From sequence record KX009778: a stretch of DNA of 64,000 nucleotides; one strand, 5' to 3'. The notes beneath the pieces are model-generated. The model ran no database searches, was not told where the DNA came from, and saw only the letters and a program-made list of their open reading frames with translations. The translations under genes and the position numbers were made by a program. This DNA comes from Escherichia phage UFV-AREG1. This document shows, in pieces, positions 1-46,294 of this stretch (position 1 is the stretch's first letter; every line of letters starts with the position of its first letter).

Positions 1-278
1 TCACGTACGCGTTTACGATAATGTCTTCCTTGATACCAGTATCCTACCCAATTTACCGGTACTAATAAAAGTGGAACTACCAATGGAAGAATTAGCATTA
101 ACATAAGTATTTCGCCAGAATCAATATCAGTCATAACATCTAAAACACCTCCAATAATCAATAGAATTACAAATGATATGAGTATAACAGGACCTATTAA
201 CACATCAGTAGAAATTATCTGACGCTTTGATTCATACTTCAACGGTTTACTTGGAAGGTATAGTGATGGTTTTGACAT
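1..278 (-). CDS. Partial CDS (N-terminal 92 codons; 3' end lies beyond window start), predicted small membrane protein
   Basis: Minus-strand frame open from ATG at 278 to window edge, not in ORF track; translation MSKPSLYLPSKPLKYESKRQIISTDVLIGPVILISFVILLIIGGVLDV... has two hydrophobic helices; weak AAGGAA SD upstream. Confidence 0.35.
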   Translation of the reverse strand, partial: MSKPSLYLPSKPLKYESKRQIISTDVLIGPVILISFVILLIIGGVLDVMTDIDSGEILMLMLILPLVVPLLLVPVNWVGYWYQGRHYRKRVR

Positions 279-855
279 ATTCTCTACATTCCTTAACAAA
301 TTTTTCTAATAATAAATCGCTTTCAAAATTTGGATTTTCCACGAATTTATCAAAAAGATCATCAACAATAGTTAAGATATTCTTTTTACTAAGAATACGT
401 TTATTTTCATGCTTCGTTTCAGAATCAACTATAAGAGTAAAGAAATATTTCTTGCCCTGAAATTTTACCGTAGTATCAATATAGAATAAATTTGACTTTT
501 GTAAATTACGTTTAAACCATGCGTCACTTAAACTATAAACGCCAAGATAGTCATAATCGTCGTTTAAATAACAAACTGTCCATTCAGGAGAAATGAAATC
601 AGTAAATTCAACATCAAAATCACACGTCAATGAATGAATTGATTCAATACTGTTAATAAGTATTCCAGGACGTATTAAAGACTTTTTACCTCTGGAAAAT
701 CTTCCAGAAAGACTTTCATCAGTTTCATACGAAGAACCCCAATAATAATTACGTCCTTCTGCCATACGTTTAAGAGCATTTAGTAATTGGTCTGGAACAT
801 CAACCTGTCTTTGGAACTCTTCAAACATTGAATTGAAATCACTTTGCATTTTCAT
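247..855 (-). CDS. Hypothetical protein, 202 aa
   Basis: ORF with GGAG SD before ATG at 855; preceded by UUCG-tetraloop hairpin; no recognisable motif. Confidence 0.55.
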   Translation of the reverse strand: MKMQSDFNSMFEEFQRQVDVPDQLLNALKRMAEGRNYYWGSSYETDESLSGRFSRGKKSLIRPGILINSIESIHSLTCDFDVEFTDFISPEWTVCYLNDDYDYLGVYSLSDAWFKRNLQKSNLFYIDTTVKFQGKKYFFTLIVDSETKHENKRILSKKNILTIVDDLFDKFVENPNFESDLLLEKFVKECREYVKTITIPSK

Positions 856-896: not shown

Positions 897-1490
897 TTAT
901 TTCAGAGAATTAATATATTCCTGGACATCGGCAGAGGTGGTTTCAACCCCAGAAATATTGCCGTTAAAAGTTTCAACTCGAGCAAGGGTATCTTCAATAT
1001 CAACCTTAGTCAGTGCTGCAATTTCAACTACATCATCGGCAGTACTAATTCCAAGGGCATTTGCTGCACGAGTTTCACGGATATATTCCAATTTAACTGC
1101 AAGTTCTTGACGAGCATCATCTAACTCAACTACTTTCTTGGCGATTTCAATTCGCATTTCAGCATAACCGTCAGCTTTAGTAGTCAACTGCTCAGCTGTT
1201 CGACGATATAGTAAACCAAGTTTAGCATGCATTGTTACATCTTGACCTTCAGAAAGAAGTTTACGAATTTCACGCTCTTTTGATTCGGCCTGTCGATTCT
1301 TTTCGATAACAAGTTCACGAATACGTTTTTCTTCATTAATAGATTTAATAGAAGCAGTTTTTAGATCTTTAATTTTATCAAGTAGTTTTGCCGCTGCGGC
1401 AGTATACTGCTCTTCAACAGATAGATTTTTAGCCATAGCAGAACCAAGTTTAGTGCGAATAAACTCAACAATTTTCTTCAGCATGTTCAT
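897..1490 (-). CDS. Coiled-coil protein, 197 aa, possibly PspA/IM30-like
   Basis: ORF with AAGGAA SD; highly charged heptad-rich sequence ([27 protein letters not shown]...); family assignment unverified. Confidence 0.55.
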
Positions 1491-1535: not shown

Positions 1536-1712
1536 TTATACTCCGGATAGTTTGTAAACTATTTCAACATCGCCTTTTGCTGCTTTATAACCTTCAGCCC
1601 AAGATATAACCGAGTTTTTATCTGAAGATTCAAATTCTGGCATTGGGCTTTCGCCAATGTTCACGCAGTATGTTTCTTCATTTTCGTCGAACCAAATAAT
1701 TAAAGTAGTCAT
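1536..1712 (-). CDS. Small hypothetical protein, 58 aa
   Basis: Below ORF-track cutoff; ATG at 1712 preceded by GGAGA SD; upstream promoter-like element with stem-loop (AACACC..GGTGTT) and TATTAT. Confidence 0.4.
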   Translation of the reverse strand: MTTLIIWFDENEETYCVNIGESPMPEFESSDKNSVISWAEGYKAAKGDVEIVYKLSGV

Positions 1713-2088: not shown

Positions 2089-2118
2089 ATAGTACCATGG
2101 AAGAATAGGGATGTAAAC
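2089..2118 (-). promoter_or_regulatory. T4-type early promoter (GTTTACA -35, 17-nt spacer, TACTAT -10)
   Basis: Minus-strand sequence GTTTACAtccctattcttccatggTACTAT immediately upstream of the 87-aa gene. Confidence 0.55.
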
Positions 2119-2229
2119 AGTTTTGTGAAAAATTTTTTAAAAAGTTTTGGGGGAATTCTAGGGCAGGGAGGGGCAATTAAAGGATAGGATAATATATTAT
2201 AAAGGATAGAAACTAAATGATGCCTAGAG

Positions 2230-2280
2230 AGGCCCGGAAAGGCCTAGATACCAAAAAGCCCCAACCTTTTGGTCGGGGCT
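2230..2280 (-). terminator. Tandem hairpins, intrinsic-terminator-like (minus strand)
   Basis: aggcc-cggaaa-ggcct hairpin followed by gccccaacc-tttt-ggtcggggc hairpin with U-run on the minus strand, downstream of the 2288..2761 gene. Confidence 0.5.
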
Positions 2281-2287
2281 AAGAATG

Positions 2288-2761
2288 TTATTTGATTTGT
2301 TTAGCAGACCAAATGCGGTCTTTAATAATTTTTTGGATGTCTTCAATATACTCAAGAGAGTGAGCATGTGGGTTATCTTTGAAACTATAAGCACGAGCTA
2401 GCTTTTGGCCTTCAGTTTTGATTACTAAAAGCTCTTTAAGGATAGCTTCATATTTGGAGATAATTCCTTTAACGATATTTTTCTCTTGTGTGACTTTAGG
2501 ATCTGCTTTAGGAGCAGGTTTACCTGAAGCCTTTGCAAAAGCAGCGCCAGTAGCAACTAAACTTTTCCAGGCCATACTAACAGCATTCCCCGTAAATCCT
2601 TCTGCTTTCATGTCGCGAGCAAATTGGAATCGTGATTCATCAGAAGCATCTTTATAAGAATATTTACCCGCGGCAATGGCAGCTTTTGCAACAGCTTGAA
2701 TTTCAGTGCTAGATGCTTCATTTAACACCGCTTCATTTAAAAATTGAGCATATGATTTCAT
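2288..2761 (-). CDS. Internal-protein-like protein with capsid-targeting-sequence-like N-terminus, 157 aa
   Basis: N-terminus MKSYAQFLNEA resembles the T-even CTS (MKTYQEFIxEA) with LxE gp21-type cleavage motif; late promoter TATAAATA upstream; flanked by terminator hairpins. Confidence 0.6.
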   Translation of the reverse strand: MKSYAQFLNEAVLNEASSTEIQAVAKAAIAAGKYSYKDASDESRFQFARDMKAEGFTGNAVSMAWKSLVATGAAFAKASGKPAPKADPKVTQEKNIVKGIISKYEAILKELLVIKTEGQKLARAYSFKDNPHAHSLEYIEDIQKIIKDRIWSAKQIK

Positions 2762-2797
2762 CTTATTTCCTGTTTTAATTCGTGGTTTTAATATACT

Positions 2798-2805
2798 TAT
2801 TTATA
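2798..2805 (-). promoter_or_regulatory. T4 late promoter core TATAAATA (minus strand)
   Basis: Exact TATAAATA on the minus strand about 37 nt upstream of ATG at 2761. Confidence 0.5.
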
Positions 2806-2836
2806 CTAAAAAGCCCCAACCTTTCGGTCGGGGCTA
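2806..2836 (-). terminator. Intrinsic terminator hairpin (minus strand)
   Basis: gccccaacc-tttc-ggtcggggc stem-loop followed by UUUUU on the minus strand; near-identical copy at 2251..2280. Confidence 0.55.
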
Positions 2837-2839
2837 AGC

Positions 2840-3122
2840 CTTGCGGCAACCTTGTCGGGGTTCCACCTGCTAAGGCAAGTGTTTGTACGAAACGCCGGGA
2901 TTCGAACCCGGTTATTAAGCAGTTGACGCTACTCAATATTTTTAAAAGGCCATATCTCGACCATATCCGAACGTTCCGTCAAAAACGCTACTCGGCTTAT
3001 GGCAAAGATATTTCCTCGAATCGATAATTCGGTGCGCCGTTTCTGCTGTGATGTAAGAGGGCATCAATAAACGCAAAGATTATTAACGCAATTCCTTACT
3101 CAGGGAACATCAGTCCGACGAC
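2840..3122 (-). ncRNA. Candidate structured small RNA region (tRNA-like T-arm; possible stable-RNA locus or tRNA remnant)
   Basis: About 280 bp with no credible ORF on either strand; minus strand carries CCGGGTTCGAATCCCGG (canonical T-stem/loop) at 2895..2911 with a possible acceptor pairing CGGAACG/CGTTTCG, but no complete cloverleaf; several local hairpins. Confidence 0.3.
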
Positions 3123-3677
3123 TTACCGGTAGCGACCCGGTTTCTCATTTGGTATTTCAAATTGTGTAGATTTAGTATCTAATTTTTTAACTATGGAACT
3201 TATGTCATGAAAGAAAAACCATTCGCCATTTATATGGTCCTGATTATAAATGCTGTGCATATATTTTTCAAGTTCTACTGCATCCTGGGAATATCTAAAT
3301 GATACTATTTTAAAACTTTTAAACGGTGAAAATGTATTTGCTGTTATAACTCTAACATCAGGTTCTATACTTCTTCCTATTTTATAATAATTAGGATTTG
3401 TAGTATCTACCATTATGTATACGAAAGCCTGTCGATAGCTTTTTTCTATATCAAATTCATCTTTAAATTTCAAAAGATTTAGGGCGGCAGTCCTACAAAA
3501 TACTTTCCATTTTGACAAGCGTTTAGCTTTAGTCATAGAAAAGAATTTTTTCTTATCTGTTATTTTAAGAAAAGCAACATTTTCAATTAGTTCTTGTGTT
3601 ATTTCAAAATTACCATGGTATATTAATCCAGCTTTTATAGCCAAATTAATTTGGTCCCAGTCTACATCACTTCTCAT
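3123..3677 (-). CDS. T5orf172 / GIY-YIG-like domain protein, 184 aa
   Basis: C-terminal half carries FVYIMVDTTNPNYYKIGRS ... R ... E..E..MH ... NGEWFFF, matching the GIY-YIG-like T5orf172 signature; N-terminal 85 aa unassigned. Confidence 0.6.
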   Translation of the reverse strand: MRSDVDWDQINLAIKAGLIYHGNFEITQELIENVAFLKITDKKKFFSMTKAKRLSKWKVFCRTAALNLLKFKDEFDIEKSYRQAFVYIMVDTTNPNYYKIGRSIEPDVRVITANTFSPFKSFKIVSFRYSQDAVELEKYMHSIYNQDHINGEWFFFHDISSIVKKLDTKSTQFEIPNEKPGRYR

Positions 3678-3698: not shown

Positions 3699-3775
3699 TG
3701 GCCAGGGTGAAAGGATTCTAACCTTTAACCTGCGGTTTAGAGGACCGCTACTCTATACAATTGAGTTACACCCCG
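3699..3775 (-). tRNA. tRNA-Arg (anticodon TCT), CCA encoded
   Basis: Manual cloverleaf: acceptor CGGGGTG/CACCCTG, D-stem ACTC/GAGT, anticodon stem GCGGT/ACCGC with loop CCTCTAA, T-arm AAAGG-TTAGAAT-CCTTT. Confidence 0.8.
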
Positions 3776-3901
3776 TAATTAGTTCACAGCAATACCTACT
3801 CCAACAATCAAGATGTCTTCACACGAAATTAAGAGAAAAGTGATCAGTTCAACCCTTATAATCGCGTCAAGTAGATATTAATGTGACAACTGTCACAAGT
3901 T

Positions 3902-3976
3902 TGGCGGACATGCATGGATTCGAACCATGGACCAATTGATTAACAGTCAACTGCTCTACCACTGAGCTACACATCC
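3902..3976 (-). tRNA. tRNA-Asn (anticodon GTT), CCA encoded
   Basis: Manual cloverleaf: acceptor GGATGTG/CATGTCC, D-arm GCTC-AGTGGTA-GAGC, anticodon loop CTGTTAA, T-arm CATGG-TTCGAAT-CCATG. Confidence 0.75.
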
Positions 3977-3980
3977 AAAT

Positions 3981-4067
3981 TGGTGGGGAGTGATGGAGTC
4001 GAACCACCCGAGTCGCAATGACAATGGATTTACAGTCCACACCGCTACCTCTACGGGATAACTCCCC
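3981..4067 (-). tRNA. tRNA-Tyr (anticodon GTA), type II with long variable arm, CCA encoded
   Basis: Acceptor GGGGAGT/ACTCCCC, anticodon stem GTGGA/TCCAT with loop CTGTAAA, long variable arm, T-arm GGTGG-TTCGACT-CCATC; D-arm pairing is irregular. Confidence 0.6.
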
Positions 4068-4076
4068 AAATTAATT

Positions 4077-4153
4077 TGGTGACCCAGACCAGATTTGAAC
4101 TGGTAACCTTTCCCTTATGAGGGGACTGCTGCTAACCATTGAGCTACAGGGCC
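4077..4153 (-). tRNA. tRNA with CAT anticodon (Ile-lysidine type or elongator Met), CCA encoded
   Basis: T-arm ACCAG-TTCAAAT-CTGGT, anticodon loop CTCATAA; acceptor stem has one mismatch and one G-U. Confidence 0.6.
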
Positions 4154-4154
4154 T

Positions 4155-4230
4155 TGGTGCTGATTGACGGAATCGAACCGCCGACATCCTCATTACAAGT
4201 GAGGTGCTCTACCTACTGAGCTAAATCAGC
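4155..4230 (-). tRNA. tRNA-Thr (anticodon TGT), CCA encoded
   Basis: Acceptor GCTGATT/AATCAGC, D-arm GCTC-AGTAGGTA-GAGC, anticodon stem CCTCA/TGAGG with loop CTTGTAA, T-arm GGCGG-TTCGATT-CCGTC. Confidence 0.8.
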
Positions 4231-4232
4231 AA

Positions 4233-4319
4233 CGGAGGCGATAGGATTTGAACCTATGAGTCGCCGGAGCGACTGCCGGTTTTCAAGACCGGTGCATTAA
4301 ACCACTCTGCCACGCCTCC
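4233..4319 (-). tRNA. tRNA-Ser (anticodon TGA), type II
   Basis: Acceptor GGAGGCG/CGCCTCC, anticodon stem CCGGT/ACCGG with loop CTTGAAA, long variable arm, T-arm ATAGG-TTCAAAT-CCTAT; no encoded CCA. Confidence 0.75.
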
Positions 4320-4321
4320 AG

Positions 4322-4395
4322 TCTCCATACAAGGATTTGAACCTTGGACCTCCTGATCCCAAATCAGGCGCTCTACCAAACTGAGCTACACGGAG
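4322..4395 (-). tRNA. tRNA-Pro (anticodon TGG)
   Basis: Acceptor CTCCGTG/TATGGAG (two G-U), D-arm GCTC-AGTTTGGTA-GAGC, anticodon stem CCTGA/TCAGG with loop TTTGGGA, T-arm CAAGG-TTCAAAT-CCTTG. Confidence 0.75.
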
Positions 4396-4405
4396 TAAAT
4401 TAAAT

Positions 4406-4479
<74 letters not shown>

Positions 4480-4485
4480 AAACTT

Positions 4486-4572
4486 TGGTACGAGAAGTGG
4501 GACTCGAACCCACAAGGAAATCATTCCGCAGCATTTTAAGTGCTGTGCCTTTACCAATTTGACCATTCTCGC
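4486..4572 (-). tRNA. tRNA-Leu (anticodon TAA), type II, CCA encoded
   Basis: Acceptor GCGAGAA/TTCTCGT, anticodon stem CAGCA/TGCTG with loop CTTAAAA, long variable arm, T-arm TGTGG-GTTCGAGTC-CCACT region. Confidence 0.75.
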
Positions 4573-4573
4573 G

Positions 4574-4646
4574 CTGGGAATAAAGGACTCGAACCTTTGC
4601 ATCTAGCAGTCAAAGTGCTATGCCTTACCAACTTGGCTAATTCCCA
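4574..4646 (-). tRNA. tRNA-Gln (anticodon TTG)
   Basis: Acceptor TGGGAAT/ATTCCCA, anticodon stem TAGCA/TGCTA with loop CTTTGAC, T-arm AAAGG-TTCGAGT-CCTTT. Confidence 0.75.
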
Positions 4647-4743: not shown

Positions 4744-5031
4744 TTACCATTTATGATAATACATATTTACAATGCATTCAAGACCTAAAGGATTCTTGAA
4801 AATATCATATTCAAGAGGACCTTTTTCTGTTTCAATAAAGAAATCAAAATTTACTGTATTAAATTTACGGTCTTCCTTCACTAATTTAACTTGAGAAGAT
4901 GAACGGTCAACATAAACCTTTTCAACTTCAAAACATGTTAAAATGCCATAATCATCGATCAAGGCTTTAGCTGCTTCTTGATCATATTTATATCCATTTT
5001 CAATTGACGATACTTTAGCATAAAGAATCAT
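4744..5031 (-). CDS. Hypothetical protein, 95 aa (ip-locus accessory gene)
   Basis: ORF co-oriented and tightly packed downstream of the 5034..5423 gene; no recognisable motif. Confidence 0.5.
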   Translation of the reverse strand: MILYAKVSSIENGYKYDQEAAKALIDDYGILTCFEVEKVYVDRSSSQVKLVKEDRKFNTVNFDFFIETEKGPLEYDIFKNPLGLECIVNMYYHKW

Positions 5032-5033
5032 TA

Positions 5034-5423
5034 TCAGCCTTCATCAACAATAGTATGAGTGTGGGCATTTACAATTTGCCACCAATCAAAGCGATTATAA
5101 CCATACATCGGTTTGTTTTCATTTTCTTTGATAATATCACGGAGTTCATCTTCGGTAGCGGCTTTCGCGATTAAATCAGCATATCCACCACGAGGATAAT
5201 AATTATCACCTGCAAAAAGTAAAAAGTTCGGTTTAATATTATTGAACTCTTCAAGAGTAATAACTTTTCCTGTCGGTTGAACAATCTCTACATATTTATA
5301 TCCTAATTTTTGAGCAGCATCTACTGCTTCAAGCAAAGTATCATGAGCCCATCCAATTTGACAACCTGGCTTTTCAGATGGATTAGCCTGATAATCCGCG
5401 TACACTTTATACATTCTATTCAC
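5034..5423 (-). CDS. Hypothetical protein, 129 aa (ip-locus accessory gene)
   Basis: ORF overlapping the upstream small membrane-protein gene by 8 nt (likely coupled translation); no recognisable motif. Confidence 0.5.
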   Translation of the reverse strand: MNRMYKVYADYQANPSEKPGCQIGWAHDTLLEAVDAAQKLGYKYVEIVQPTGKVITLEEFNNIKPNFLLFAGDNYYPRGGYADLIAKAATEDELRDIIKENENKPMYGYNRFDWWQIVNAHTHTIVDEG

Positions 5424-5601
5424 CTTTAGAAATTTTATCCATAACGATAGCGATTAAACCAATTAAAAATGCTACTACAAGTGAAAACACATTTTCTGCT
5501 GTAGTTAATAATCCGCATATAAATCCAGCAAACATTGAAAAACTAAAAGCAGAAGCAGAAATTGCAATAGCAACATTTCGAATTAATTCACAACGTTTCA
5601 T
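5416..5601 (-). CDS. Small membrane protein, 61 aa (start moved to internal ATG)
   Basis: Track ORF 5416..5670 extends across a promoter cassette; ATG at 5601 has GAGGAG SD; two predicted TM helices (AIAISASAFSFSMFAGFICGLL, VFSLVVAFLIGLIAIVM). Confidence 0.5.
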   Translation of the reverse strand: MKRCELIRNVAIAISASAFSFSMFAGFICGLLTTAENVFSLVVAFLIGLIAIVMDKISKGE

Positions 5602-5662: not shown

Positions 5663-5887
5663 TTATTCAACGCCAGCGGCTTTCAAAAGTTTTTTAAGAT
5701 TGGCAACACCTTGAGCAGAAAATGTGACCTTGCCACCTTTTTCACTGATAGAACCAACCAATTTAGCAAGTTTATCATTAGGAATTTTTTTAAAATCAGC
5801 CAATGTTCCATCAAAGGTTTTTGAAACAAAAGGCAGTTCGTCTTCGCGTCTTTTAGCTTCTACAATAAATTCTTGATATGTTTTCAT
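5663..5887 (-). CDS. Internal-protein-like protein with CTS, 74 aa
   Basis: N-terminus MKTYQEFIVEA matches the T-even capsid-targeting sequence; own promoter cassette upstream. Confidence 0.65.
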   Translation of the reverse strand: MKTYQEFIVEAKRREDELPFVSKTFDGTLADFKKIPNDKLAKLVGSISEKGGKVTFSAQGVANLKKLLKAAGVE

Positions 5888-5915
5888 TTTATTCTCCTCA
5901 GTAGTTGATAGGGTA

Positions 5916-5945
5916 ATAGTATCACTACCCCATCTAAAAGTAAAC
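5916..5945 (-). promoter_or_regulatory. Early-promoter/stem-loop cassette (PeSL-like)
   Basis: Minus-strand GTTTAC -35, TACTAT -10 lying in the loop of a GGGTA/TACCC stem, then GAGGAG SD. Confidence 0.55.
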
Positions 5946-5955
5946 GGTTTATAAA

Positions 5956-6264
5956 CTATTTTATTCCGCGTGATGCAATTGTGTTCTGCCGTTTAACGCC
6001 AGTTTGTTTAAAGTCATGATTGTCGATTTGATCGGTACGAGCAACTCCGAATGATGATTTGATCTTAGCTTTAGATCCTTTAGTTATAGAAATAAACATC
6101 TCGGAAGCCCCTTTCTTAAAGTCCGAAGCGATTACTTCAACGCCGTTCTTAGCAAGTGACTTCAGAATTGCCTCTGCATACTCATCGTCAAGACTCGTCT
6201 GAGTATTAATAACGAATGTCTTTGGCGCAGCCGCTTCATTGATAAATTCTTTGAAAGTTTTCAT
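5956..6264 (-). CDS. Internal-protein-like protein with CTS, 102 aa
   Basis: N-terminus MKTFKEFINEA (CTS); own promoter cassette upstream. Confidence 0.65.
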   Translation of the reverse strand: MKTFKEFINEAAAPKTFVINTQTSLDDEYAEAILKSLAKNGVEVIASDFKKGASEMFISITKGSKAKIKSSFGVARTDQIDNHDFKQTGVKRQNTIASRGIK

Positions 6265-6294
6265 TTTATTTTCCTAATTAAGTTTGATGAGATA

Positions 6295-6324
6295 ATAGTA
6301 TCACAACCCTATTTAAAAGTAAAC
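6295..6324 (-). promoter_or_regulatory. Early-promoter/stem-loop cassette (PeSL-like)
   Basis: Minus-strand GTTTAC -35 overlapping the stop of the upstream gene, TACTAT -10, then AGGAAAATAAAATG. Confidence 0.5.
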
Positions 6325-6597
6325 TCATTTTAAATAAATTGCGTATTTTTTATAACCCGCTGACTCATGACGAAGACCCTTATCATTAGCAAAACGCTCA
6401 ATGTTGTTAATTTGATTCTGGTCAAGTTCAGAGATGTCAAACACGAAAAAGTTACGTTTGTTACCAACTGTTACATAGTCAGTTAAATCAATATCATATA
6501 GGTAATTGATGTCAGCAATCAAAGTCTTGACAGCTTTGCTAATTTTTACTTTTTCGTTAAAAGTAGCTTCATTGATAAATTCTTGATATGTTTTCAT
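6325..6597 (-). CDS. Internal-protein-like protein with CTS, 90 aa
   Basis: N-terminus MKTYQEFINEA (CTS); own promoter cassette upstream. Confidence 0.65.
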   Translation of the reverse strand: MKTYQEFINEATFNEKVKISKAVKTLIADINYLYDIDLTDYVTVGNKRNFFVFDISELDQNQINNIERFANDKGLRHESAGYKKYAIYLK

Positions 6598-6625
6598 TTT
6601 ATTCTCCTCAGTAGTTGATAGGGTA

Positions 6626-6655
6626 ATAATATCACAACTAAAACCCTATGTAAAT
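6626..6655 (-). promoter_or_regulatory. Early-promoter/stem-loop cassette (PeSL-like)
   Basis: Minus-strand ATTTACA -35, 17-nt spacer, TATTAT -10, then GAGGAGAATAAAATG. Confidence 0.5.
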
Positions 6656-6673
6656 AACTTTGTGAAAAATTTA

Positions 6674-6961
6674 TTACAAAAGATTTTTAGCAATAATCTT
6701 GAGATGTGCCGCAGAAATGTGTTTAGCTTTAAACAACGCAGTTTCTTCAGCAGGAGAGATAACGATTGTAGCACCATCCTTTTTAGCAGACCACCCATCG
6801 CCTAGGTAAACAGTACCTTTGATTTCTTCGCCATCAACCAGACTAATCATTGGTTTACCTTCTCGTCCTTTATTTGCTTTAATAACTTCAGAAGTAAGAG
6901 TAGCTTCGGTAATAGTAGAAACCGGGGTAGTTGTAGAAGTAAATTCTTTGAAAGTTTTCAT
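6674..6961 (-). CDS. ipI: Internal protein I (IPI)-like, 95 aa; predicted 19-aa CTS leaving a 76-aa mature protein
   Basis: N-terminus MKTFKEFTSTTTPVSTITE|A with ITE gp21 cleavage motif; 95 aa precursor / 76 aa mature matches T4 IPI; located next to 57B as in T4. Confidence 0.7.
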   Translation of the reverse strand: MKTFKEFTSTTTPVSTITEATLTSEVIKANKGREGKPMISLVDGEEIKGTVYLGDGWSAKKDGATIVISPAEETALFKAKHISAAHLKIIAKNLL

Positions 6962-6982
6962 TTTATTTTCCTAATTAATTTT

Positions 6983-7021
6983 GATGAGGTAATAGTATCA
7001 CTACCTCATCAGTATGTAAAC
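6983..7021 (-). promoter_or_regulatory. Early-promoter/stem-loop cassette (PeSL-like) with perfect 9-bp hairpin
   Basis: Minus-strand GTTTACA-N17-TACTAT; the -10 lies in the loop of gatgaggta / tacctcatc (6983..7010). Confidence 0.6.
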
Positions 7022-7033
7022 AACTTTGTGAAA

Positions 7034-35499: not shown

Positions 35500-35924
35500 T
35501 GCTTCTGATCCCTGAAACTCATGAATTAGTTCTCGAGAATGTCGAAGCACTTATTCCTGAAGCACAGGGTCGCTTTGACGAATTGTCTTCTGCTTTAAAT
35601 AAAGACGATATAAATACAATTGTCGAGAATATGCTTGATGATGAAACTGATTTAGCGATTGCATTAGCTTCTATTAATGAAAATATGCCGTTAAATGAAT
35701 TCATTGTTAAGCATGTTTCAGCTCGTGGTGAAATTACTCGCACTAAAGATCGCAAAACCCGCGAACGAAATGCATTTCAAACCACTGGGCTGTCTAAAGC
35801 AAAACGTAGACAAATTGCTCGTAAAGCTACCAAAACGAAGATTGCCAATCCAGCAGGTCAATCTCGTGCTCAGCGTAAGCGTAAAAAAGCTCTTAAACGC
35901 CGTAAAGCATTAGGATTAAGCTAA
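35499..35924 (+). CDS. 68: gp68 prohead core protein
   Basis: 141 aa; length and order match T4. Confidence 0.9.
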
Positions 35925-36562
35925 TGAATGAACCCCAATTACTAATTGAAACTTGGGGTCAACCTGGCGAAATTATTGATGGCGTGCCAATGCTTGAATC
36001 TCACGATGGAAAAGACTTAGGTTTAAAACCGGGTTTATACATCGAAGGAATATTCATGCAAGCGGAAGTCGTCAATAGAAATAAACGTCTTTATCCAAAA
36101 CGCATATTAGAAAAAGCGGTAAAAGACTATATCAATGAGCAAGTTTTAACTAAACAAGCTCTCGGAGAATTAAATCATCCTCCACGCGCTAATGTTGACC
36201 CGATGCAAGCCGCTATCATTATAGAAGATATGTGGTGGAAAGGAAATGACGTATACGGACGAGCTCGTGTTATTGAAGGTGACCACGGTCCTGGAGATAA
36301 ATTAGCAGCTAATATTCGTGCCGGATGGATTCCAGGAGTTTCTTCTCGTGGATTAGGTTCATTGACTGACACAAATAAAGGTTATCGTATCGTAAACGAA
36401 GGATTCAAATTAACTGTAGGTGTTGATGCAGTATGGGGTCCAAGTGCTCCAGATGCATGGGTAACTCCTAAGGAAATTACCGAATCACAGACGGCGGAAG
36501 CCGATACAAGTGCCGATGACGCCTATATGGCTCTCGCAGAGGCCATGAAAAAAGCGTTATAA
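35924..36562 (+). CDS. 21: gp21 prohead core scaffold protein and protease
   Basis: 212 aa; length and order match T4. Confidence 0.95.
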   Translation: MNEPQLLIETWGQPGEIIDGVPMLESHDGKDLGLKPGLYIEGIFMQAEVVNRNKRLYPKRILEKAVKDYINEQVLTKQALGELNHPPRANVDPMQAAIIIEDMWWKGNDVYGRARVIEGDHGPGDKLAANIRAGWIPGVSSRGLGSLTDTNKGYRIVNEGFKLTVGVDAVWGPSAPDAWVTPKEITESQTAEADTSADDAYMALAEAMKKAL

Positions 36563-46063: not shown

Positions 46064-46294
46064 ATGTTACTAGAATTTAAACAATTTCTTTATGAAGCTT
46101 CTATTGATGAATTTATGGGTAAAATTGCCTCTTGCCAAACGATAGAAGGTTTAGAAGAACTTGAAGCTTATTATAAGAAAAGAGTTAAAGAAACTGAATT
46201 AAAAGATACTGATGACATCTCAGTCAGAGATGCTTTGGCAGGAAAAAGAGCTGAATTAGAAGATTCAGACGATGAAGTAGAAGAAAGCTTTTAA
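46064..46294 (+). CDS. uvsW.1: UvsW.1-like small acidic protein, 76 aa
   Basis: Start moved to ATG 46064 (GGAG SD); track ORF start at 46052 is a TTG. Confidence 0.6.
   Translation: MLLEFKQFLYEASIDEFMGKIASCQTIEGLEELEAYYKKRVKETELKDTDDISVRDALAGKRAELEDSDDEVEESF

Follow-up and report, generated by a model that had tools for sequence, protein, structure and literature searches.

The window analysed here, 64 kb of a Tequatrovirus (T4-like) phage (Escherichia phage UFV-AREG1, KX009778), encodes on its minus strand a protein of 157 amino acids, ORF157, whose gene lies between rnaC and e.8. We propose that ORF157 is a packaged and processed internal head protein (Ip) of the T4 type that has not been named before, and that rnaC-e.8 is a third ip locus; a rough probability for this reading is 0.65. 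No description of ORF157 as an internal protein was found in the literature searched, where the only hints are a flag in the virion proteome of phage fD1 and one database name. The parts of the gene on which the argument is built are the following (a slash marks a presumed cut by the prohead protease gp21).

2288-2761, minus strand: open reading frame (ORF) 157, 157 amino acids, PHROG family 2280
2732-2761, minus strand: residues 1-10, MKSYAQFLNE, a propeptide resembling a capsid-targeting sequence (CTS) and ending in the first L-N-E/A
2717-2731, minus strand: residues 11-15, AVLNE, duplicate of the cleavage-site segment (15 nt) and source of the second L-N-E/A
2537-2710, minus strand: residues 18-75, conserved three-helix N-domain, the part common to the genera
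2492-2536, minus strand: residues 76-90, Lys/Pro/Ala-rich linker of low model confidence
2300-2500, minus strand: residues 88-154, C-terminal helical hairpin domain
2478-2482, minus strand: A5 run in codons E93-K94-N95, with recurrent +1 and -1 frameshift alleles in relatives
2766-2771, minus strand: Shine-Dalgarno sequence AGGAAA, 4 nt 5' of the ATG, as read from the sequence
2798-2805, minus strand: T4 late-promoter box TATAAATA, exact, 36 nt 5' of the ATG and abutting the U-run of the upstream terminator
2803-2838, minus strand: upstream copy of a 36-nt direct repeat with a hairpin at 2812-2835 (loop GAAA), terminator of the tRNA/rnaD/rnaC unit
2248-2283, minus strand: downstream copy of the repeat with a hairpin at 2257-2280 (loop AAAA) followed by UUUUU, the intrinsic terminator of ORF157

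ORF157 starts with MKSYAQFLNEAVLNEA, read as MKSYAQFLNE/AVLNE/A, with L-N-E-A at residues 8-11 and 13-16; the frame, its CTS-like start and the two LNE/A sites were found exactly as quoted in a first-pass annotation made from the letters of this DNA. The protein shares with T4 IPI, IPII and IPIII and with Ip4 the CTS MK(T/S)Y.(E/Q)F(I/L).E that ends in a gp21-type L-x-E/A; the CTS of such proteins has about 10 residues and is similar to MKTYQEFIAE. When the strict pattern ^MK[TS][YF].[EQ]F[ILV].E was scanned against the 575 ATG-started ORFs of at least 40 amino acids in the six frames of the window, it matched only four of them, namely the ip cassettes at 5663, 5956 and 6325 and ORF157 itself, in agreement with the earlier designation as a CTS-like protein. 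Relatives with no more than 37-50% identity in the rest of the protein still have the motif. Among nine aligned family members (37-96% identity), M1, F7 and L8 are invariant and a Glu closes the N-terminal motif in each; the residue that follows is A, Q, G, S, V or L. Examples are MKFKEFLAE/A in Klebsiella Jiaodavirus, MLEYSEFLKE/LFCE/A in Yersinia phage fHe-Yen9-01, MKSYAEFLTE/Q in a cluster labelled Mosigvirus by the sources and MKTYAQFLMTE/A in RB27. The gp21 motif, L/I-x-E followed by a small residue, is present in ORF157 as a sequence motif, and its form, FL-x-E/A, is that of the window's own gp23 (...GSFLTE/AEIGGDHGY); the position of the gp23 maturation cut is established in T4.

The duplication of the cleavage-site segment is not found in every allele: P0035 has the single-copy form FLNEASASD without AVLNE, and other alleles read FLTEQ or FLMTEA. 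A further ORF of 76 amino acids (46064-46294, plus strand; start MLLEFKQFLYEAS) was considered as a CTS protein and rejected. It matches PHROG 1143 'DNA helicase', so its CTS likeness is probably due to chance; presumably it is uvsW.1.

Judged from its late promoter, expression of ORF157 would be timed to prohead assembly. The box TATAAATA is exact, as the first-pass annotation had stated, and occurs 23 times in the window compared to 9.45 +/- 3.17 times in shuffled sequences (0 of 100 shuffles reached 23); most of the copies precede long ORFs, for example those identified as genes 22 and 24. The main ip locus is built differently. All four of its cassettes have, at their 5' side, GTTTAC-17-GATACTAT, a T4-early-type promoter within a stem-loop, and no TATAAATA was found within one mismatch at the expected position 5' of any of the four. 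Therefore, the contrast between early ip cassettes and a late ORF157, already drawn in the first-pass annotation, is real. The early-promoter modules lie at 5888-5955, 6265-6324, 6598-6673 and 6962-7033 (minus strand), inside an inverted repeat (e.g. GGGTAGTGATACTATTACCC), and resemble the promoter-stem-loop (PeSL) shuffling motifs of T4-type hyperplastic regions.

The gene is indeed bracketed by near-identical hairpins, as had been noticed before. On the minus strand both read AGCCCCGACC-GAAA/AAAA-GGUUGGGGCU (here the slash separates the two loops) and then UUUUU; the 10-bp stems with 7 G-C pairs are identical and the loop is the sole difference. Their predicted stabilities are -20.3 and -19.7 kcal/mol (z-scores -3.6 and -4.3). 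The 36-nt repeats to which they belong are identical in 34 of 36 positions and spaced by 555 bp, and a search of the 64 kb for the 28-mer revealed no copy besides these two when up to 3 mismatches were allowed (chance expectation 0.00). The upstream hairpin is marked as a potential terminator in X03016. The succession of terminator, U-run, (A/G)GTATAAATA, 34-48 nt and ATG was found, with differing spacers, in most Tequatrovirus-type loci examined and in Jiaodavirus KpV477; the late box carries one mismatch in two of the loci examined.

ORF157 belongs to PHROG family 2280, function unknown; at E = 9.7e-60 the match extends over the whole protein, residues 1-157 being aligned with positions 1-172 of the 178 in the profile. 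tblastn revealed homologs in 510 phage records, every one of them annotated as 'hypothetical protein', and among about 320 cluster members 'Internal head protein' is the name of a single UniRef entry, from Klebsiella phage KPKp. In the curated record of RB27, Ip4 and ipI have names and the ORF157 homolog has none. Searches of Pfam, PADLOC and PDB sequence profiles with ORF157 gave no significant match. The alignment to T4 IPII and IPIII proposed as a check by the first-pass annotation showed that ORF157 is neither: the best BLASTP E value with IPIII is 2.7 and no alignment was obtained with IPII. Identity with Ip4 (RB27, phiD1) was ruled out in the same way, using the phiD1 copy. Distant matches to repeat proteins of 750-2300 amino acids in exhaustive HMMER searches were judged spurious; these proteins have Ig-like/cadherin repeats, and only a word like 'AAGSYSYKA' is summed over the repeats. 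Ip4 (157 amino acids, MKTYQEFITE/AA...), which replaces T4 ipII/ipIII beside e in phiD1 (locus L002, 1032-1505), RB27 (L004, 1228-1701) and T2 (L015, 1893-2366), is of the same length as ORF157 by coincidence; the two are unrelated.

The ratio of nonsynonymous to synonymous substitutions (dN/dS) in pairs among six alleles is 0.06-0.22, about 0.1, at a dS of up to about 2, and therefore ORF157 is a real gene under purifying selection. An AlphaFold model based on nine homologs reached a predicted local distance difference test (pLDDT) value of 77.6. The N terminus is poorly ordered ahead of the folded domain (residues 8-14 below 50). The N-domain, with the motifs AGKYSY...ESRFQF...GF...WKS, holds most of the invariant residues (AGKYSY, E42, R44, F47, D50, G55, F56, K66 and S67). 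After a cut behind Glu15 the predicted mature protein would have 142 amino acids, 15.5 kDa and an isoelectric point (pI) of 9.6; the processed forms of IPI, IPII, IPIII and Ip4 span pI 9.0-9.65.

In some relatives the reading frame is interrupted near the start of the C-terminal domain. Alleles with a +1 shift in the A5 run (...QEKKYC, then stop) were found in three allelic backgrounds (P0024, P0039, P0041) and alleles with a -1 shift (...QEKISLKELSPNMKLSLKSF, then stop) in P0006 and P0009; these keep only propeptide, N-domain and linker. KpV477 has an in-frame TAA near the equivalent of the run. The A5-run alleles may be real, switch-like variants or sequencing errors.

Virion proteomics, the second check that had been suggested, is available for an ortholog. 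The closest DNA match to window positions 2100-3100, a stretch matched by 705 phage records, is Yersinia phage phiD1 (= fD1, HE956711) with 97.4% identity across the full kilobase, and its g140 (67942-68415, 157 amino acids, 17.3 kDa; 'No' in the column for T4-similar proteins) is the ortholog of ORF157 (97% identical). In the work of Skurnik et al. 2021 (PMC8309999), in which purified virions of fD1 were subjected to liquid chromatography and tandem mass spectrometry, Table S3 marks g140 as 'PPAP' (phage-particle-associated), for which the main threshold was at least 2 peptides and a mean spectral count of at least 2. The neighbours g138 and g139 (e.8) were negative (PMC8309999). The papers on fPS-65, LC53 and Kc304 contain no proteomics.

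Taken together, we envisage the following course of events. Early and middle transcription of the tRNA/rnaD/rnaC unit stops at the upstream hairpin, as shown by the sequence and the T4 annotation. From TATAAATA, which abuts the U-run of this hairpin, a short monocistronic late mRNA would be made that ends at the twin hairpin. The first 10-15 residues would act as CTS and carry ORF157 into the core of the assembling prohead, where gp21 may cut the propeptide at L-N-E/A after Glu10 and/or Glu15. The predicted N-terminal peptides are ASSTEIQAVAK for a cut after Glu15, AVLNEASSTEIQAVAK for a cut after Glu10 and SYAQFLNEAVLNEASSTEIQAVAK for the uncleaved protein. A basic, helical protein of 15.5 kDa would then remain in the filled head, as supported by the virion proteome of fD1, and would enter the next host together with the DNA.

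Several observations weigh against a packaged internal protein. ORF157 has no homology to any characterised Ip beyond its first 11 residues, and an informative fold match was not obtained among solved or predicted structures. Some alleles have Met at P3 of the presumed site (FLMTE/A), unlike the classical L/I-x-E, and the homolog in fHe-Yen9-01 lies directly behind another ORF and has neither a terminator nor a TATAAATA of its own. Virion mass spectrometry of the Jiaodavirus phages ValerieMcCarty03/04 yielded no peptide of the family (PMC13119998), the carriage of the gene by these phages not being established. The fD1 list is not very selective, with 113 of 277 genes scored positive, among them those for DenV, lysozyme e, NudE, e.5 and e.6 (PMC8309999), so the detection of g140 raises the odds only about 2-fold and the support is modest. 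Finally, the family is conserved across genera and under purifying selection, unlike the hypervariable ip cassettes, which would fit a role in structure, assembly or DNA handling.

It could be argued from the scoring of such proteins as particle-associated in the fD1 preparation, and from the missing homology outside the N terminus, that ORF157 is a late cytoplasmic protein that is never packaged; its CTS likeness would then be a relic of recombination at the 5' end or due to chance, and its detection in virions a contamination. We consider this very improbable. The N-terminal motif was retained across genera while the remainder diverged to 37-50% identity, only three other ORFs of the window, all of them ip cassettes, fit the strict CTS pattern, conservation extends to the late promoter, and size and charge are like those of known Ips.

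A second alternative accepts packaging and processing and assigns to ORF157 a structural function as an accessory of the prohead core or of DNA condensation (charge neutralisation, head assembly or DNA exit) in place of an anti-defence function. The strong purifying selection, the conservation in at least six genera of the Tevenvirinae, the basic charge, the Lys/Pro/Ala linker and the generic, coiled-coil-like C-domain would suit it. However, the heads of T2, T4 and T6 are normal without the gene, truncated and nonsense alleles are frequent and the copy number varies from 0 to 2, all of which is typical of accessory genes. A structural function is, therefore, quite unlikely. Dispensability, variable copy number and frequent truncated alleles are, on the other hand, features that fit an accessory counter-defence gene. 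Internal proteins of this type are known: each of Ip1, Ip2 and Ip3 inhibits a different subtype of GmrSD type IV restriction (Silas et al. 2025, PMC12373910), and Bas37_0260, which was known only by its CTS and is unrelated to IPI-III, inhibits McrBC (HIDEN-SEQ preprint, 10.1101/2025.11.20.689424). ORF157 is not among the proteins in the supplementary files of Silas et al. 2025 (PMC12373910). By analogy with these four proteins it is tempting to speculate that ORF157, once injected, most likely counteracts a host defence directed at incoming DNA; such a role is tentative, with chances somewhat short of even.

The features around ORF157 were named with T4 (NC_000866, locus L001) as a guide. At the left end of the window all genes are on the minus strand.

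247-855, minus strand: e.5
897-1490, minus strand: e.6
1536-1712, minus strand: ORF of 58 amino acids
1781-2044, minus strand: e.8, the neighbour 3' of ORF157
2089-2117: early-promoter-like site for e.8
2886-3024, minus strand: rnaC (species 1 RNA), the neighbour 5' of ORF157, 97.8% identical to T4
3031-3148, minus strand: rnaD, placed, like rnaC, by alignment to T4
3123-3677, minus strand: ORF of 184 amino acids with MUG113/T5orf172 domains
3699-4646, minus strand: ten tRNA genes
4744-5601, minus strand: trna.2, trna.3 and trna.4
5663-6961, minus strand: four ip cassettes, the main ip locus
7034 onward: 57B, 57A and gene 1
35924-36562: gene of the prohead protease gp21

The core protein gp22 and the protease gp21 are both encoded in the window. 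Rfam has no family for the twin hairpins, rnaC or rnaD. The MUG113/T5orf172 domains of the 184-residue protein are GIY-YIG-related; its gene lies between rnaD and tRNA-Arg, with its 3' end overlapping the 5' end of rnaD. T4 has no gene at this position and its segB is on the other side of tRNA-Arg. The ORF is probably a homing-endonuclease-like mobile gene.

The 555-bp unit bounded by 36-nt direct repeats had been taken in the first-pass annotation as a sign of an inserted cassette. T4 indeed has the predicted empty site, with exactly one copy of the hairpin and the e.8-side and rnaC-side flanks contiguous to either side of it. An 80-nt query spanning this T4 junction matched 603 records; in 78 of them (13%) the junction is contiguous, that is empty, and the remaining records match in two separate places. 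About 87% of the matching records, mostly Tequatrovirus, carry the gene at this locus. The empty ones comprise every listed T4, T2 and T6 record and PST, RB55/59, ACG-C40, Sf24 and others. The absence of the gene from T2, T4 and T6 is sufficient reason for its absence from the classical literature on head proteins.

The locus can also hold more than one cassette. In 165 phage records a second paralog of PHROG 2280 (187 amino acids, start MKTYAEFLTE/A, E = 2e-53) follows directly 3' of the ORF157 homolog, and at its end lies a third hairpin, again with the UUUUUGGUAUCUAG tail; therefore, the rnaC-e.8 locus exists with 0, 1 or 2 cassettes. In an IMG/VR Tequatrovirus contig (L006, 7600-8163) the 187-residue paralog has its own near-consensus late box, AATAAATA, and the third hairpin ends in TTTTTGGTATCTAG. 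Two tandem PHROG-2280 paralogs are also present in fHe-Yen9-01 (L013, 6422-6991 and 7001-7537; MLQYNEFLKE... and MLEYSEFLKE...). In the same locus an ORF of 52 amino acids with a canonical MKTYIEFINE start (5700-5858) lies among the tRNA genes, and CTS-bearing genes cluster around tRNA genes in the genus of fHe-Yen9-01, too.

The empty T4 site, with its single hairpin and matching flanks, and the 0, 1 or 2 cassettes that each end in a hairpin followed by UUUUUGGUAU, would be expected if a mobile cassette had inserted into a T4-like site that was empty before, with duplication of the terminator in the process. However, a deletion between the direct repeats yields an identical junction, and the distribution of the gene speaks against insertion, which we regard as unlikely. 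Just 3' of the tRNA genes (after rnaC in L009-L012), homologs occupy the same position in Jiaodavirus, in fHe-Yen9-01 and in loci that we assign to Mosigvirus; there, the terminators on the two sides differ in sequence or the upstream one is missing. Because the gene occupies the same syntenic spot in other genera without twin terminators, and because only 13% of the records are empty, loss is likelier than insertion: on sequence grounds the gene would be ancestral at rnaC-e.8 in the Tevenvirinae, with the empty site resulting from loss between the twin hairpins. Thus, of the earlier idea the empty site with a single hairpin was borne out by T4, but the polarity of the event is probably the reverse. 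The loss would probably have occurred by recombination between the 36-nt repeats; as phages of several species have the empty site, it may have happened repeatedly. The twin hairpins of Tequatrovirus would then have arisen by secondary homogenisation. Phages of Serratia, Erwinia, Kosakonia and Enterobacter carry relatives of ORF157, too, and the family spans at least six genera of the Tevenvirinae. A Logan assembly contains a chimera of 94 amino acids (P0014) made of the N-terminal part of trna.3 and the last 31 residues of ORF157, which indicates a natural deletion of trna.2, all tRNA genes, rnaD, rnaC and most of ORF157.

How does ORF157 compare with known systems? Like the T4 IPs, and like Ip4 and later Ips of other T-even phages (Repoila et al. 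1994; Mullaney and Black 1996; Silas et al. 2025), it is small, basic (pI 9.6), dispensable and variably present, and its ortholog was detected in virion preparations; unlike them, it has two domains and shares no sequence beyond the propeptide. The T4 IPs are encoded at the ipI locus (57B-tRNA) or the ipII/III locus (denV-e), whereas ORF157 sits at rnaC-e.8, behind a terminator and an exact late promoter instead of an early promoter in a stem-loop. Position in a known ip locus and an early promoter are, however, customary and not mechanistically defining features of internal proteins. A further difference is that ip cassettes are swapped for unrelated ones, while ORF157 is conserved across genera (dN/dS about 0.1). 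The gene of Bas37_0260 lies in the ipI locus, and experiments have shown what the protein does; it demonstrates that new CTS proteins can be inhibitors of type IV restriction.

The PeSL cassettes of T4-type hyperplastic regions, reportedly described by Arbiol, Comeau and Krisch in 2010, are comparable to the ORF157 locus in that short, repeated stem-loops bracket small ORFs and give homology for gain, loss and shuffling. The repeat in PeSL is an early promoter in a stem-loop, whereas the repeat at ORF157 is an intrinsic terminator that abuts a late promoter. Another comparison is with PHROG 2280 itself, to which the protein of the second cassette and the paralog of fHe-Yen9-01 also belong; it carries no functional label.

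All T-even internal proteins tested (Ip1, Ip2, Ip3 and Bas37_0260) are injected inhibitors of specific type IV restriction systems. This makes ORF157 an obvious and cheap candidate for a new counter-defence, and it may help to explain differences in host range between T4 and therapeutic T4-like isolates. The locus is a clean natural example of gene loss or gain via duplicated terminators, with states of 0, 1 or 2 cassettes. For T4 head-packaging technology, the propeptide is a second targeting sequence, one that has diverged in nature. A wider proposal, which we consider rather doubtful at present, is that PHROG 2280 as a whole is a conserved family of the Tevenvirinae, consisting of head-packaged, gp21-processed and injected effectors against a widespread host defence for which no Ip is known so far, with rnaC-e.8 as the third ip locus; cassettes gained or lost through the terminator repeats, and recurrent frameshifts in the A5 run that leave an isoform with the N-domain only, would adjust its dosage and form. 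If this were true, the family would have gone unnoticed because T2, T4 and T6 carry the deleted site.

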